Assembly (NCBI GenBank): GCA_018995085.1
Contig: GCA_018995085.1_3936.1
Direction: 5' to 3' (one strand)
Source: a phage
Length of the DNA stretch: 64,000 bases
The position numbers and the translations under genes were made by a program. This document shows, in pieces, positions 33,075-45,520 of this stretch. Positions within the stretch are counted from its first letter, which is position 1. Each line of letters opens with the position of its first letter. Under the pieces are notes generated by a model. The model saw only the letters and a list, made by a program, of their open reading frames with translations. It made no database searches and had not been told where the DNA came from.

Positions 33075-38437
<5,363 letters not shown>

Positions 38438-39909: not shown

Positions 39910-40764
39910 ATGTTTGAAAAGATTGATAGTGTTTATTATAAAACACTTGATGAAAGGACTGTAACACAGTTTAAAGATAAATTTATCTATACAAGTATCT
40001 TGAAAGCAATCACTGATGAGCTACAAACATTAGAGGATGTTTGCTGGCAGATGCACACAGAGAGAAATATCAGGACGTCAGTAGGCCAACAACTTGATAA
40101 TATTGGCTCACTGATTAAAGTTCCTAGACCTTTAGGTGCAGATGATGAAACATATAGAGCTATGCTTTATATCCAAATCTTCCTAAGACGCTCTGACACC
40201 ACCCCAACATTCTTGCAAAAAGCAATTATGACACTATATGGTGCAACTTTCTCTCAGATTTTTGAGCATATTACTCCTAAGACTGGTGGTATCGTTATCC
40301 GTATCAACACTAGAAAAAGCGTTCTAGATGCTGCATATACGTTGTCAAAGATTTCTGCAACAACTACTGGCTCCGCTGTTATCTTAAGAGATGTTACTTT
40401 AAATGGGACTGCTTGGACACCTGTAGAGGTTGCTGATTCATCACTTGCTATTGTTGATGATAAAGAGAACTGGTTTGTAACTGATGCTAACAGAGGTCTT
40501 GTCACAAATAATACTGGTGGCTCTCTGGAGTCCAACTTAGTAGGTAGTCTTGCAGATGCTGTTGTTATTGATGGTTACTTTAGGGTTGACAGAACAGCAA
40601 ACTCACAGAGTGATGATTATATGACTGTAGATAGGTCCAATAATAGTGGCTATTTCATCGTTGGTAAAGAAGCTATTGCAGGTGGTGCATATGGAATCAT
40701 GGCTGAGGTTGCACAAATTGTCAAAGGCAGAAAAGATAAATCACAACAAGAAGGAAATTCTTAA
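39910..40764 (+). CDS. baseplate or tail fibre attachment protein candidate
   Basis: positional. Confidence 0.4.
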
Positions 40765-41066
40765 TGGCAGTTTTAAATTGGTCTACAAATGAAGTAGATA
40801 CTGATGGTAACCAGTTAAAAGTTTTACCACCACCGGAAGTTCAAGAGACAGGTCTTTTAAAGGGTGAGCCTATGGGTAGACAGTGGTTCAACTATATTAT
40901 CAACTACCTGCTGAATAAAGTAAATGGCACTGTTGGTGAAGTTCGTTCATATGCAACTGAGCAACCAGATTTAGTAGCTAATGGCTGGAACCTCATTAAG
41001 TCTGAGACAGGGACTGCATCAACAAGTACAAGAAACCTTTACACATATGAATATGTAGGAGCTTAA
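40764..41066 (+). CDS. hypothetical tail protein
   Basis: positional. Confidence 0.4.
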
Positions 41067-41068
41067 TA

Positions 41069-42244
41069 ATGGCAGTAGGTGAAATTCAAATTAGTGCCTT
41101 GCCACAAGCGGCCTTACCAATTGATTTGAGTGATATCTTCCATCTTAAGCAAGGTGTTGAGGATAAAAGATGTACGCTTGAACAGTTGTTAGCACCTCAC
41201 GCATCTTTGAGGAATAACCCTCATGGTGTAACGAAATCGCAAGTAGGTCTTGATAATGTTATTAACTCTCTTCAATTAGTTGCAGCTAATAACTTGTCAG
41301 ACATTGTAAATGTTGCTGAGGCAAGAGCAAATCTACAAATTATGTCGTCAGAGGAAGTGAATAACTTAATTCAGCAACATATTGACGACAAAAGCAACCC
41401 ACACAACACAACGAAAGCACAGGTTGGTTTAAGTAATGTTCAGAACTGGACAACATCTAATCTGTACAATGAAGATGCTGATAAGTATGCTACAGCGAGA
41501 GCAGTGAATAATCTATACAAAGCTATCCAAGCATCATATCCAGTGGGTACTATTCATCTATCTGTTAACTCTGCTAACCCATCCACTTACTTGCTTTGTG
41601 GAGGTACTTGGGAGTTAGTTTCTAAAGGTAGGGCACTAGTTGGTTATGATACAGATTCTAGACCTGTTGGTTCAATGTTTGGTTCTCAGACTGTAGCATT
41701 AACAAATAATAATTTACCAGCACATACTCACTCTATCTACCTAACAGGTGGTGGTCATACACACTCTGCAAGTGTATCTATCTCTAGTTTTGATTATGGT
41801 TCAAAAAGTACATCAACTTTTGATTACGGTACAAAAACGACTAATAGTGCTGGTGCTCACACTCACACGTTTAGTGGCACAACAAGTAATGCTGGTAACC
41901 ACAACCATAGAGTCCCTATGAGGGGTAATGATAGGGGTGGCACAAACGCTATTACTGCATCTGCTGATGCTGGTGTTGGTAATGCTATGTATACTGATTT
42001 AGCTGGTGCTCACACCCATAGCTTCTCAGGTACAACTGCATCATCTGGTGCTCATAGCCATACTGTCGCAATTGGTGCTCACAGCCACACTGTTAATATT
42101 GGTTCGCACAGTCATACAGGCACTGTTACTGTTTCTAGCTCTGAGCATACACACTCAGGGACATCTGGTTCTGTTGGTGGTGGTCAAGCTTTCAGTGTTG
42201 AGCAGCCATCTTTTGTAGTGTATGTGTGGCAGAGAACAGCTTAA
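41069..42244 (+). CDS. tail fibre protein with His-x-His repeats
   Basis: AHTHS/HTHS/AHSHTV repeats; C-terminus FSVEQPSFVVYVWQRTA shared with next gene. Confidence 0.65.
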   Translation: MAVGEIQISALPQAALPIDLSDIFHLKQGVEDKRCTLEQLLAPHASLRNNPHGVTKSQVGLDNVINSLQLVAANNLSDIVNVAEARANLQIMSSEEVNNLIQQHIDDKSNPHNTTKAQVGLSNVQNWTTSNLYNEDADKYATARAVNNLYKAIQASYPVGTIHLSVNSANPSTYLLCGGTWELVSKGRALVGYDTDSRPVGSMFGSQTVALTNNNLPAHTHSIYLTGGGHTHSASVSISSFDYGSKSTSTFDYGTKTTNSAGAHTHTFSGTTSNAGNHNHRVPMRGNDRGGTNAITASADAGVGNAMYTDLAGAHTHSFSGTTASSGAHSHTVAIGAHSHTVNIGSHSHTGTVTVSSSEHTHSGTSGSVGGGQAFSVEQPSFVVYVWQRTA

Positions 42245-42290
42245 TTTCTTTACAGGGGCTTTATAGCCCCTTTTAAGAGGAAAATTCATA

Positions 42291-44840
42291 ATGGCAGATT
42301 ACAAATTGAGTCAGTTAAACTCAATCGACACAATTCGTTCAGAAGACCTATTGCACATCAGAGTTAAGAAAAGACCTGAAATGTTGGGTGACGAAGACCG
42401 TAGAATGACCTATCAAGACTTCTTAGCTTCCTTCAAACTAGAAAGGTTTGTTCAGATTGCTGGAAGTAATATGACTGGGGATTTAGGTATTGTCAAGTTA
42501 CTTTATGGTGGTAAGGCAGTATTTGACCCTACAGGTTCTTCTGAAATTACTATTGGGGATGTTTTAAAGACTTTTAAACTTAACGCAAATGGTCTTAAAC
42601 TAACTATTGCAGATGCTTCAAGGTCAGCAACTGTTTATCATACTCTGAATAAGCCAAGTCCTAATGAGCTTGGTATGAGAACTAATGAAGAGAATGATGC
42701 AAGATATGCAAGGCTTGCTGTTACAAACACATTCTCTGGAACTCAGAACATTCAAGGTGATGCTAACTTACTTCGTCTTAGAAACCAGAATGCAAATAAT
42801 GCGCAATATATTGAGGGTGTGAACTTAGATGGTTCAGCTAGATGGTGGGTTGGTATTGGTAGTAATGGCTCTGATGAAGTAAAACTGTACAATAACAAAT
42901 ACAACTCAGCTTTGACTATTGCAAGCAATATCTCTGTTAATAAGTCTTTAGCAATCACTGGGCAAGTTCAACCTTCAGATTTCTCTAACTTAGATGCTAG
43001 ATACTTCACTCAGACAGTTGCTAATCAGAGATTTGCACAGTTAGCTGGCAATAATACTTTTACAGGTGCTAACACATTTAGGACTATGAGTGTTATTTCA
43101 AATGCTGCTGCTATCACACTGCAATGTGCATCAGCAAACGAATCCCTGTATCTACTTGCAAAAGATTATGAAGGTGGAAACTTATGGTATCTTGGTAAAG
43201 GTAGTTCAGGTGCTGGTGTAACTATCTACAACTATACCACTAACACCTCTTTGGTCTTAGATGCTGCTGGAGTATCAGCAAATAAAAATGTCAGAATCAC
43301 TGGACAAGTTCAACCTTCAGATTGGGCTAACATTGACTCTAGATATATTCCGGCAGCAACATTAAGTACAATTGCAAGAACTAATGCAAGGAATACTTTT
43401 AATGGTGTACAGACAGTTGTTACGGATAATGAAGGTCTGATTGTTAAAAACTCTACTCAGAATAGACCATTATATATTCGTGGTGTGGACACTACTAATG
43501 TATCAAGATGGTGGATTGGTGTTGGTGGTGCTGATACGAATGATGTTACCCTAAATAACAGTTATTCTGGAACCCAATTGGTTCTCGGAAATACAACATC
43601 ATACATTAACAAAACATTGACTATTGCTGGACAAGTTCAACCTTCAGATTTCTCTAACTTAGATGCTAGATACTTTACGCAAAGTGCTAGTGATAGCAGA
43701 TACCTAAGAATCAGAAGTACTAGTTTTAATTTAGGAAACGGTGAAAAGTGGGCTAAAATCGCTACTGTTGTAATGCCACAATCAACATCTACGGCAGTCA
43801 TTGAGGTTTTTGGAGGTGCTGGTTTTAATGCGAATAACCCATACCAAGCAGGTAAGTGTGAAATTGTTTTACGAACGTCAAATAATAATCCAAAGGATTT
43901 AAATGCTGTAGCTTGGAGAACAGCAGATAATGCCCTCATCACGGATATTGGTTATATTAACACTTCTGGTGACACTTATGATATTTACTGTAAGGTTGGT
44001 GGCTACCAAAATTCTACGGTATCTAGGGTTCAATCTTCTAGTAATGCAAGTGTACAGTTGTTTGAAGTCCCGCAAACATTTGATGATGCTCCACAAGGTA
44101 TTGTGAAGGGTACAATTGCAAAATACTACACAAGTTTGCAAAAACCAACCCCTTCAGATATTGGTGCATACACTAAAGCAGAAACTGACCAGAAGATTGC
44201 AGAAGCAATTAGTGACTCTACAGACCTGAATAAAATCTATCCAGTAGGTATTGTGACGTGGTTTAACAGTAATGTCAACCCAAACACAGCACTTCCTGGG
44301 TTAACTTGGACGTACCTGAATAATGGTGTTGGTAGAACTATTAGAATTGCAGCAGCAAACGGTTCAGATGTTGCTACAACTGGTGGTTCAGACTCTGTAA
44401 CGTTGTCTGTTGGTAACTTACCTTCACACACGCACAGCTTCTCTGCTACTACTTCATCATTTGACTATGGTACTAAGACTTCTAGCACAACTGGTAACCA
44501 CAACCACAACAGAGGTACTATGGAGATTACTGGTTCATTTGGTTACTTCAGAAGTGACGCTAGTAGCTTCTACACAGCAAGTGGTGCATTCTACCTCGGT
44601 AGTCAGGCAGGTTCTAAAGGGTATACTGGTAACAACTTTACTAATGGTATCCCTGTCAACTTCAACGCATCAAGAAACTGGTCTGGTGTAACGAATACAA
44701 CAGGTAACCACAGCCACACTGTTGGTATTGGTGCTCACAGCCACACAGTTAGCGGTAACACAGGTGGTACTGGTTCTGGTTCAGCATTTAGTGTTACTAA
44801 CCAGTTCTACAAGTTAATGGCTTGGGTAAGAACTGCTTAA
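42291..44840 (+). CDS. long tail fibre protein with internal repeats and His-x-His C-terminal region
   Basis: 849 aa; triplicated GQVQPSD(F/W)(S/A)N(L/I)D(A/S)RY(F/I) segments; SHTHSF/HNHN/AHSHTV; C-terminus FSVTNQFYKLMAWVRTA. Confidence 0.65.
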   Translation: MADYKLSQLNSIDTIRSEDLLHIRVKKRPEMLGDEDRRMTYQDFLASFKLERFVQIAGSNMTGDLGIVKLLYGGKAVFDPTGSSEITIGDVLKTFKLNANGLKLTIADASRSATVYHTLNKPSPNELGMRTNEENDARYARLAVTNTFSGTQNIQGDANLLRLRNQNANNAQYIEGVNLDGSARWWVGIGSNGSDEVKLYNNKYNSALTIASNISVNKSLAITGQVQPSDFSNLDARYFTQTVANQRFAQLAGNNTFTGANTFRTMSVISNAAAITLQCASANESLYLLAKDYEGGNLWYLGKGSSGAGVTIYNYTTNTSLVLDAAGVSANKNVRITGQVQPSDWANIDSRYIPAATLSTIARTNARNTFNGVQTVVTDNEGLIVKNSTQNRPLYIRGVDTTNVSRWWIGVGGADTNDVTLNNSYSGTQLVLGNTTSYINKTLTIAGQVQPSDFSNLDARYFTQSASDSRYLRIRSTSFNLGNGEKWAKIATVVMPQSTSTAVIEVFGGAGFNANNPYQAGKCEIVLRTSNNNPKDLNAVAWRTADNALITDIGYINTSGDTYDIYCKVGGYQNSTVSRVQSSSNASVQLFEVPQTFDDAPQGIVKGTIAKYYTSLQKPTPSDIGAYTKAETDQKIAEAISDSTDLNKIYPVGIVTWFNSNVNPNTALPGLTWTYLNNGVGRTIRIAAANGSDVATTGGSDSVTLSVGNLPSHTHSFSATTSSFDYGTKTSSTTGNHNHNRGTMEITGSFGYFRSDASSFYTASGAFYLGSQAGSKGYTGNNFTNGIPVNFNASRNWSGVTNTTGNHSHTVGIGAHSHTVSGNTGGTGSGSAFSVTNQFYKLMAWVRTA

Positions 44841-44919: not shown

Positions 44920-45114
44920 ATGCCTACAATCCTAGCAATTCTTCTAAAAAATCTAGGTAGCTTCTTCTGGAAACTCATTTTATCCCTTCTAAGTGAATAC
45001 ATGATTGAGAAAGTGTTCTTTAAGCTTGCAAGATACCTTGCGAGTAAAACAGATACACCTATTGATGATGAGTTCGTAGATAACTTAGAAAAAGCTTTTA
45101 AGGGGGAGAAATAA
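44920..45114 (+). CDS. small membrane protein (holin-like candidate)
   Basis: 64 aa, hydrophobic N-terminal half. Confidence 0.35.
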   Translation: MPTILAILLKNLGSFFWKLILSLLSEYMIEKVFFKLARYLASKTDTPIDDEFVDNLEKAFKGEK

Positions 45115-45486
45115 ATGAAGTGGCTAGAGGAAGCTTTTAAAAATAATATTGGTGCAATTGTAGTTGGTATTTTTAGTGTTATCGGGATGTATACCACTAT
45201 GCAAGTTTCAAGTGGTAAGCAAGAAGTGTCTGTCACAACAAAGTTACAGCAGCTAGATAATTATTCCAAAAGTAACTATTCAGCTATTCGTGATTTACAG
45301 TCTGACATGAGACTGATTCAGCTAGGTATGGAGAACCAGAAAGTCCAGTTAGAGAATGTTAAGGGTGAGAATGCGAAACTTACCAAAACTCTTGATAAAT
45401 TCTCTGACAGTGTGAACAATCTGGCCCAATCAGTATCAGCCTTGCAAGCTATTACTGAAAAGAACACAAAGAATACTGAAAAATAA
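45115..45486 (+). CDS. membrane-anchored coiled-coil protein
   Basis: N-terminal TM helix (IGAIVVGIFSVIGMY) then coiled-coil. Confidence 0.4.
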   Translation: MKWLEEAFKNNIGAIVVGIFSVIGMYTTMQVSSGKQEVSVTTKLQQLDNYSKSNYSAIRDLQSDMRLIQLGMENQKVQLENVKGENAKLTKTLDKFSDSVNNLAQSVSALQAITEKNTKNTEK

Positions 45487-45494
45487 AATTTTAA

Positions 45495-45520
45495 GGCTCC
45501 CGTAAAAAGGAGCCTTTTTT
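45495..45520. terminator. bidirectional terminator (GGCTCC-cgtaaaaa-GGAGCC + TTTTTT)
   Basis: hairpin between convergent genes with T-run on plus strand and A-run upstream. Confidence 0.7.

Follow-up and report, generated by a model that had tools for sequence, protein, structure and literature searches.

Two tail fibre genes at the end of a baseplate block

The 64,000-nucleotide stretch of phage DNA analysed here (contig GCA_018995085.1_3936.1 of NCBI GenBank assembly GCA_018995085.1; hereafter the window) carries two adjacent tail fibre genes, one encoding a short fibre of 391 residues and the other a long fibre of 849 residues. Both proteins contain arrays of His-x-His (HxH) motifs, and both end in a region homologous to the tip of the phage T4 fibre protein gp37. 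A sequence-only reading of this DNA had already called the two open reading frames (ORFs) tail fibres, and database comparisons bear this out. The short fibre belongs to PHROG 2097 'tail fiber protein' (E=3e-139); it is 99% identical to the product of wV8 gene 82 by tblastn and 78% identical to Bas63 gp26. The long fibre matches PHROG 4277 'tail fiber protein' over its full length (1350 bits) and is 63% identical to Bas63 gp27. In published phages with 96–97% identity to the window, the corresponding genes carry a tail fibre annotation, and wV8 genes 82 and 83 are annotated 'tail fiber protein', similar to the Felix O1 'putative tail fiber protein GP37'. By sequence and position, the pair is orthologous to Bas63 gp26/gp27 and to wV8 genes 82/83.

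At the DNA level, the entire fibre region has 96–97% identity to Escherichia phages KEP3 and wV8 and to the O157 typing phages. Nearly all of the 240 phage records that match it are Felixounavirus, and the host of the phages closest to the window is O157:H7. This degree of identity, combined with the annotation of wV8 genes 82 and 83, places the source phage, on sequence grounds, as a wV8-type member of the genus Felixounavirus (Ounavirinae) and the two ORFs as its two fibre genes. The genes and the regions assigned within them are as follows:

41069–42244, plus strand: short tail fibre gene, an ORF of 391 residues, orthologue of wV8 gene 82 and Bas63 gp26
41069–41530, plus strand: putative baseplate-binding N-terminal region and shaft of the short fibre, nearly invariant relative to Bas63 gp26
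41531–41719, plus strand: short fibre collar, first part, residues ~155–217, with boundaries set via the T4 alignment
41720–41908, plus strand: predicted ascending needle strand of the short fibre, residues ~218–280, with HxH motifs at 219, 230, 264 and 278, aligned to T4 stem 882–931
41909–41992, plus strand: short fibre apical head, residues ~281–308, the predicted receptor-contacting tip, mapping to T4 tip 932–959
41993–42199, plus strand: predicted descending needle strand of the short fibre, residues ~309–377, with HxH motifs at 315, 329, 338, 347 and 360, from the T4 alignment
42200–42244, plus strand: predicted C-terminal collar closing strand of the short fibre, residues ~378–391 (...FVVYVWQRTA), and stop codon, aligning with T4 gp37 1010–1026
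42291–44840, plus strand: long tail fibre gene, an ORF of 849 residues, orthologue of wV8 gene 83 and Bas63 gp27
42675–43691, plus strand: three tandem shaft repeats of the long fibre, ~110 residues each, residues ~129–467, from gp37_trimer matches, alignment of the units and DNA repeats
43716–44126, plus strand: variable middle module of the long fibre, residues ~476–612 (~140 residues), between the shaft repeats and the collar
44214–44423, plus strand: long fibre collar, first part, residues ~642–711, from the 2XGF profile match and Gp10_C
44424–44795, plus strand: predicted needle and head of the long fibre, residues ~712–835, with HxH columns in common with T4
44796–44840, plus strand: predicted C-terminal collar closing strand of the long fibre, residues ~836–849 (...FYKLMAWVRTA), and stop codon, mapping to T4 1010–1026

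Each fibre has a repetitive shaft. In the short fibre, the motif NPHxxTKxQVGLxNV occurs twice, at residues 50–64 and 110–124 (41216–41260 and 41396–41440), 60 residues apart. Many PHROGs of unrelated phage tail proteins match this region, so the motif is apparently a short shaft repeat of wide distribution. The N-terminus of the short fibre probably binds the baseplate, by analogy with the cryo-electron microscopy (cryo-EM) structure of Bas63 (PMC12609058). In the long fibre, the triplicated GQVQPSD(F/W)xNxDxRY segment described from the sequence is present at residues 224, 338 and 447, each copy ending a unit of ~110 residues. The units share 31–40% pairwise identity, coincide with three gp37_trimer (PF20744) stretches in Pfam (E=9.8e-78) and are visible in the DNA as three 76-nucleotide copies (repeat family D1) that lie 342 and 327 nucleotides apart. 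The PHROG matches of the middle module (residues 476–612) are to other phage fibre proteins, and Pfam and PDB sequence searches with this module returned nothing meaningful. It forms a second variable cassette of the long fibre.

Both fibres end in a gp37-type tip

In both proteins, the ~240 C-terminal residues show homology to the T4 gp37 tip (PDB 2XGF). In a PDB sequence search, residues 145–362 of the short fibre matched 2XGF (gp37 785–1026) with E=8e-27 and 97.6 bits. The long fibre alone matched with E=5.5e-7, and a profile of its tip family, built from 119 relatives, matched with E=5.3e-35 across chain residues 21–238 of 242. The two fibres are likewise related to one another. BLASTP aligned a homologous module of ~220 residues at 31% identity (E=3e-16, 67.4 bits), and comparison of the short-family and long-family profiles with hhalign gave a probability of 100% (E=3.4e-48) with an alignment that reaches the last residue. 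The long fibre also has a Pfam Gp10_C match at residues 647–756, which at 25.5 bits falls slightly below the cut-off of 27.

The tip of T4 gp37 provides the domain plan. Its domain D10 (residues 811–881 and 1010–1026) has the collar fold common to gp12, gp10 and gp11, and D11 (882–1009) is inserted in D10, with a stem formed by residues 882–931 and 960–1009 and a tip formed by residues 932–959; seven iron ions lie along the needle (PMC6957217). These boundaries were transferred through a three-way alignment of T4 gp37 with both fibres. Both proteins have a collar of the gp10/gp11/gp12/gp37 fold, and both have a variable head at the needle apex. The alignment further predicts that (i) the needle is inserted in the collar, with its HxH motifs in register with the T4 iron sites; and (ii) in agreement with a monomer model, the chain reverses direction and finishes as the strand that closes the collar.

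The sequence-only reading had proposed structure prediction as a check, with a trimeric beta-helix or needle fold as the expected outcome. AlphaFold2 (AF2) predictions of the monomers confirmed the collar fold only; the needle, being trimeric, lies outside the reach of monomer models, and the gp37-type tip found here is not a beta-helix. In the short-fibre model, the per-residue confidence score (pLDDT) is 94 in the last block, like that of the collar, and 60–75 in the needle. Despite its name, the short fibre was ruled out as an orthologue of T4 gp12; a PDB search with both fibres gave no sequence-level match to gp12.

Repeated HxH motifs had been reported in both fibres, and every peptide string quoted for them occurs in the translations. 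The full set is larger than the part named at that time. The short fibre has nine motifs (at residues 219, 230, 264, 278, 315, 329, 338, 347 and 360), which account for 18 of its 24 histidines, and the long fibre has four (at residues 713, 737, 807 and 816), which account for eight of ten. To model chance, each protein was shuffled 20,000 times with its composition preserved. The shuffled means were 1.4 for the short fibre and 0.10 for the long fibre, and the observed count was reached in 0/20,000 shuffles of either protein. Of the 88 stop-to-stop frames with ≥100 residues in the whole window, the short fibre is the richest in HxH and the long fibre comes next.

Each of the seven T4 motifs (883, 915, 929, 966, 980, 989 and 998) shares its alignment column with a motif of the short fibre; the short/T4 pairs are 219/883, 264/915, 278/929, 315/966, 329/980, 338/989 and 347/998. 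The long fibre shares four of the seven columns (883, 915, 980 and 989). Its motifs 713 and 737 are assigned to the ascending strand and 807 and 816 to the descending strand, and the apex at ~741–803 is free of histidine. The homology to 2XGF and this shared register sustain the earlier comparison of the arrays with the metal-binding arrays of the T4 tip.

The departures from T4 are informative in their own right. The extra motifs of the short fibre, 230 on the ascending and 360 on the descending strand, form a matched pair beside the collar. The long fibre lacks the pair that flanks the apex in T4 (929 and 966) and also lacks T4 998. Such pairwise change is expected because a needle that doubles back can be lengthened or shortened only via both strands, and the paired gains and losses are thus internal evidence that the chain would fold as a hairpin. 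The descending strand of the short fibre has, in addition, a nine-residue GAHSHTVxI period that appears in the DNA as 27-nucleotide repeats (repeat family D2).

A proposed metal-stapled fibre tip

We propose, with a probability of roughly 90%, that the two genes encode homotrimeric fibres of a wV8-type Felixounavirus, each ending in a T4-gp37-type, metal-stapled, receptor-binding tip. Each homotrimer would be anchored on the baseplate through its conserved N-terminus, and the shaft of the long fibre would be made of the three gp37_trimer repeats and the variable middle module. Within the tip, the chain would leave the collar, run out as a needle strand, form the apical head, return, and end as the last collar strand. 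Three such chains would yield a six-stranded needle. The histidine pair of each HxH motif would face the three-fold axis, with three chains offering six ligands per metal ion. In T4, the metal at each HxH layer is Fe2+ with octahedral coordination. Up to nine ions in the short fibre and four in the long fibre would be stacked on the axis as staples that stiffen the needle. Finally, the hypervariable apex loops would contact the cell surface or receptor, which, as in relatives, is probably lipopolysaccharide (LPS).

A conserved scaffold with divergent apices

Conservation along the tips follows the proposed architecture. Among 49 relatives of the short fibre, identity is 0.82–0.96 in the collar, declines along the ascending strand to 0.16–0.21 at residues 286–305, and recovers along the descending strand to 0.8–0.9 at the C-terminus. 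Among 118 relatives of the long-fibre tip, identity at the apex (residues 745–803) is 0.03–0.12 with low occupancy, and the flanks stand at 0.6–0.8. The apices of the two fibres, ~28 residues in the short and ~60 in the long, are unrelated to each other. The sequence-only reading had suggested two receptor specificities built on a common module. A conserved collar and proximal needle that carry hypervariable apices, wholly different between the fibres, fit that suggestion and point to two specificities on one conserved scaffold.

An opposing view is that both tips bind the same receptor. In that case the fibres would be redundant and differ in reach, and the common module would reflect a common ligand. 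Homology of the scaffold is indeed common to both tips, and reports on phages of the Felix O1 type generally describe a dependence on LPS, not on proteins (PMC8594841). Nonetheless, we judge a single shared receptor to be improbable. The part that contacts the receptor in T4 is the apex, which is exactly where the two fibres are unrelated, and the apex varies independently across relatives. Moreover, the short tip is nearer to T4 gp37 (97.6 bits) than to the neighbouring long fibre (67.4 bits), which speaks for separate histories of the two tips.

Two specificities on one scaffold would also accord with how widely the module has travelled. The HxH needle segment shares ~50% identity with the fibre tips of T-even and lambdoid phages. 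The tip of the long fibre shows 40–50% identity, across ~90% of its length, to fibres of Providencia, Morganella, Erwinia and Photorhabdus prophages. The matches listed in the protein search with the long tip (residues 615–849) are all at most 412 residues long, and near-identical fibres of ~849 residues are missing among them; close relatives are under-represented at the top of that list, through a quirk of the candidate selection or of the collection, and the phage DNA collection contains many fibres at 93–97% identity. The similarities to T4 and to prophages, together with a short tip that is nearer to T4 than to its own neighbour, argue for a mosaic, widely exchanged module rather than a recent local duplication.

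Two ideas about the long fibre are more speculative. It may be, although we rather doubt it, that the wV8-type long-fibre tip is unusual in its combination of a short needle, four predicted metal layers and a ~60-residue head without a structural template. Just as doubtful is the notion that the enlarged His-free head (residues 741–803), the middle module (476–612), or both, constitute an undescribed receptor-binding fold behind the O157:H7 range. If this were true, the long fibre would have two binding sites of its own.

Probable retention of the metal sites

The HxH motifs could instead be a relic of a repeated fibre unit (Pfam Phage_fiber, PF03335) in which metal binding has been lost. The number of motifs per protein does differ among homologues, from 7 to 10 in short-fibre relatives and from 2 to 7 in relatives of the long-fibre tip, and individual sites can therefore be lost. 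Against such a relic, in either family no columns are better conserved than the histidine pairs. In the short-fibre family (121 sequences), four histidines are invariant and six more are conserved at ≥90%; in the long-fibre family (119 sequences), four are invariant and four are conserved at ≥90%. Gains and losses of HxH mostly occur in ascending/descending pairs, and the T4 iron-binding histidines H929 and H931, adjacent to the tip, are essential (PMC6957217). We thus hold a wholesale loss of metal binding to be very improbable and continue to favour the metal-stapled needle.

The shared C-terminal tail

The two fibres have related tails, as had been noticed from the sequence. Ten of 22 residues are identical, and the tails form the end of the homologous ~220-residue module. 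The fibre tails …AFSVEQPSFVVYVWQRTA and …AFSVTNQFYKLMAWVRTA align with T4 …TENTVKNIAFNYIVRLA, which is gp37 1010–1026, and it is to this segment that the C-terminal 14 residues map. An xRxA terminus is conserved in homologues of both families, including the T4-type VRLA. Since gp37 1010–1026 is part of the collar, the tail would be the end of the chain after its return from the needle and not a separate module. Alignment and model alike identify the shared tail as a structural collar strand of the mature protein.

The sequence-only reading had also raised the possibility that the tail is a duplicated intramolecular chaperone. Such a chaperone would drive trimer folding and then be cleaved off. 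C-terminal Peptidase_S74 chaperone domains are found, for example, in the L-shaped fibre of phage T5 and in the K1F endosialidase. Apart from the relatedness of the tails, this possibility gains from the shortage of other candidates: a gp38 homologue was not found in the 64-kb window (the best tblastn match with T4 gp38 had E=0.22; gp57A was not searched for), two small downstream genes are without a known function, and the Sf14 paper notes that Ounavirinae fibres seem to be single proteins without homologues of the Mu chaperones gp50/gp51 (PMC11821841). Without recognisable gp38 or Mu-type chaperones, some folding aid is unaccounted for. A duplicated chaperone was nonetheless rejected and is almost certainly wrong: Peptidase_S74 (PF13884) is unmatched in either fibre protein at E≤0.1; the tail, at ~14–20 residues, is far too short compared with the >100 residues of such chaperone domains; it aligns with gp37 1010–1026, which in the crystal structure belongs to the mature collar (PMC6957217); the xRxA protein end is conserved in all homologues including T4; and AF2 groups the tail with the collar at pLDDT 94. 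The dependence of T4 on the chaperones gp38 and gp57A is a property of T4 assembly and not of the fold.

Gene neighbourhood

The fibre ORFs close a baseplate gene block that comprises a spike, wedge subunits, a Baseplate_J protein, a 284-residue baseplate protein and a 100-residue protein. Downstream of the fibre pair are two small ORFs, followed by convergently transcribed genes for thymidylate synthase and dihydrofolate reductase. The gene order (platform, short fibre, long fibre, small genes, td/frd) is identical in the window, wV8 and Bas63. Two further features border the fibre genes:

40764–41066, plus strand: 100-residue protein, orthologue of Bas63 gp25 (LTF platform on the baseplate), from the position and size of bas63_0025 and a match to PHROG 4141 (E=1.5e-60)
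42255–42277, plus strand: intergenic hairpin GGGGC-TTTATA-GCCCC followed by TTTT, read from the sequence

The 100-residue ORF has a structural counterpart in PDB 9NDY chain S, which is also 100 residues long and is named 'LTF platform protein (gp025)'. PHROG 4141, the family of this ORF, is labelled 'unknown function'.

The hairpin lies in the 46-nucleotide gap that separates the short and long fibre genes, and the wV8 annotation has a Rho-independent terminator at the equivalent site. A consensus terminator scan did not flag the hairpin at 42255–42277, because its T run is short. A leaky terminator at this position could reduce expression of the long fibre relative to the short fibre. In Bas63, occupancy of the long fibre varies from zero to six per virion (PMC12609058).

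The two small ORFs after the long fibre lie at 44920–45114 (64 residues) and 45115–45486 (123 residues). The 123-residue protein has a predicted membrane segment and a coiled-coil-like region. PHROG comparison of the two ORFs yielded only families of unknown function and a borderline Rz-like spanin match (E=0.009). By their sequences, the ORFs at 44920–45486 are not recognisable as fibre chaperones. A bidirectional terminator hairpin follows them at 45493–45516.

The 207-residue baseplate spike (37396–38019) has one HxH of its own, H188-I-H190, within ...NNHIHHYYW. The position corresponds to a di-histidine motif that was proposed to bind iron in the Bas63 puncture apparatus (PMC12609058). The spike would be a third HxH-bearing trimeric protein of the same gene block.

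Two database records with other host labels also match the fibre genes. MG065664.1, 'Campylobacter phage A132' (70.7 kb), matches them at 79% identity and 85% query coverage; the other is a 'Staphylococcus' record. Contamination or mislabelling may lie behind these host labels, which look doubtful.

Implications

The gene pair, its homology to gp37 and the architecture of collar, HxH needle and head are already published for the genus. Departures from the published picture are at the level of alleles: the HxH counts and, in the long fibre, the greater size of the His-free head and another middle module. The practical value of the present analysis is therefore in annotation and engineering. The domain map separates a conserved scaffold (collar, proximal needle and closing strand) from a swappable apex, with coordinates in the window, and the boundaries between them would be the ones to use when retargeting host range in Felixounavirus phages that infect O157:H7. 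The map also corrects a misreading, in that the conserved C-terminal tail of such fibres is, by alignment and model, the end of the collar and not a chaperone.

Comparison with known systems

The closest described system is Bas63 (Escherichia phage JohannRWettstein; MZ501086, PMC11482910), which belongs to the same genus and has the same gene order, with fibre identities of 78% and 63%. A cryo-EM study (Sci Adv 2025) described a 430-Å short fibre, gp26, which joins a wedge subunit, and a 630-Å long fibre, gp27, which joins the platform (PMC12609058). Both tips are gp37-like, with a collar, a six-stranded HxH needle and a head, and the chain doubles back; there are seven HxH motifs in the short fibre and six in the long fibre, and the tips vary across the genus (PMC12609058). 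The fibre models are flexibly fitted AlphaFold predictions (PMC12609058), which is why metals were not seen in them.

Bas63 and the window agree fully or almost fully in the collars and C-terminal strands. The two long fibres have the same closing strand, and two substitutions distinguish the first parts of their collars. However, the short fibre of the window has nine HxH motifs to the seven of Bas63, and the long fibre has four to its six. The apex sequences differ as well, with the Bas63 gp27 apex retaining more histidines, and where the long fibre of the window has its ~140-residue middle module, Bas63 gp27 has a shorter, unrelated segment.

The T4 gp37 tip has a homologous collar, needle, head and closing strand, and the xRxA end in common with both fibres. 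Relative to the T4 needle, that of the short fibre is longer by one matched HxH pair and that of the long fibre is shorter, and the sequence of the T4 apex is unrelated to those in the window. The proteins also differ in overall construction: the fibres of the window are single proteins of 391 and 849 residues, whereas T4 has a four-protein, jointed fibre of ~1,450 Å. T4 binds OmpC or LPS. T4 gp12 (PDB 1OCY/1H6W), unlike the short fibre of the window, lacks a long needle and has just one metal site, a Zn site in its receptor-binding domain.

Homology of both fibre C-termini in Felix01-like phages to the gp37 adhesin was reported in 2015 with VpaE1 gp74/gp75, where the N-termini were found to be conserved and the C-termini variable (PMC4690856). 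VpaE1 gp74/gp75 and the Felix O1 fibres are orthologous pairs that carry other apex and middle-module alleles than the window. VpaE1 is specific for a truncated LPS core of the E. coli B type, in contrast to the O157:H7 host of the closest relatives of the window. For Felix O1-type phages, the reported receptors are LPS structures, and Bas63 needs an intact core (PMC8594841). In a sister genus, Sf14 has two fibres of the same lengths (PMC11821841).

Further afield, prophage and lambdoid side tail fibres end in tips with Phage_fiber (PF03335) repeats, a collar (PF07484 or PF21939) and a similar needle, joined to different N-terminal shafts and attachment domains. Since these shafts and attachment domains differ, what the lambdoid fibres share with the fibre pair of the window is a mosaic module and not a whole-gene relationship.

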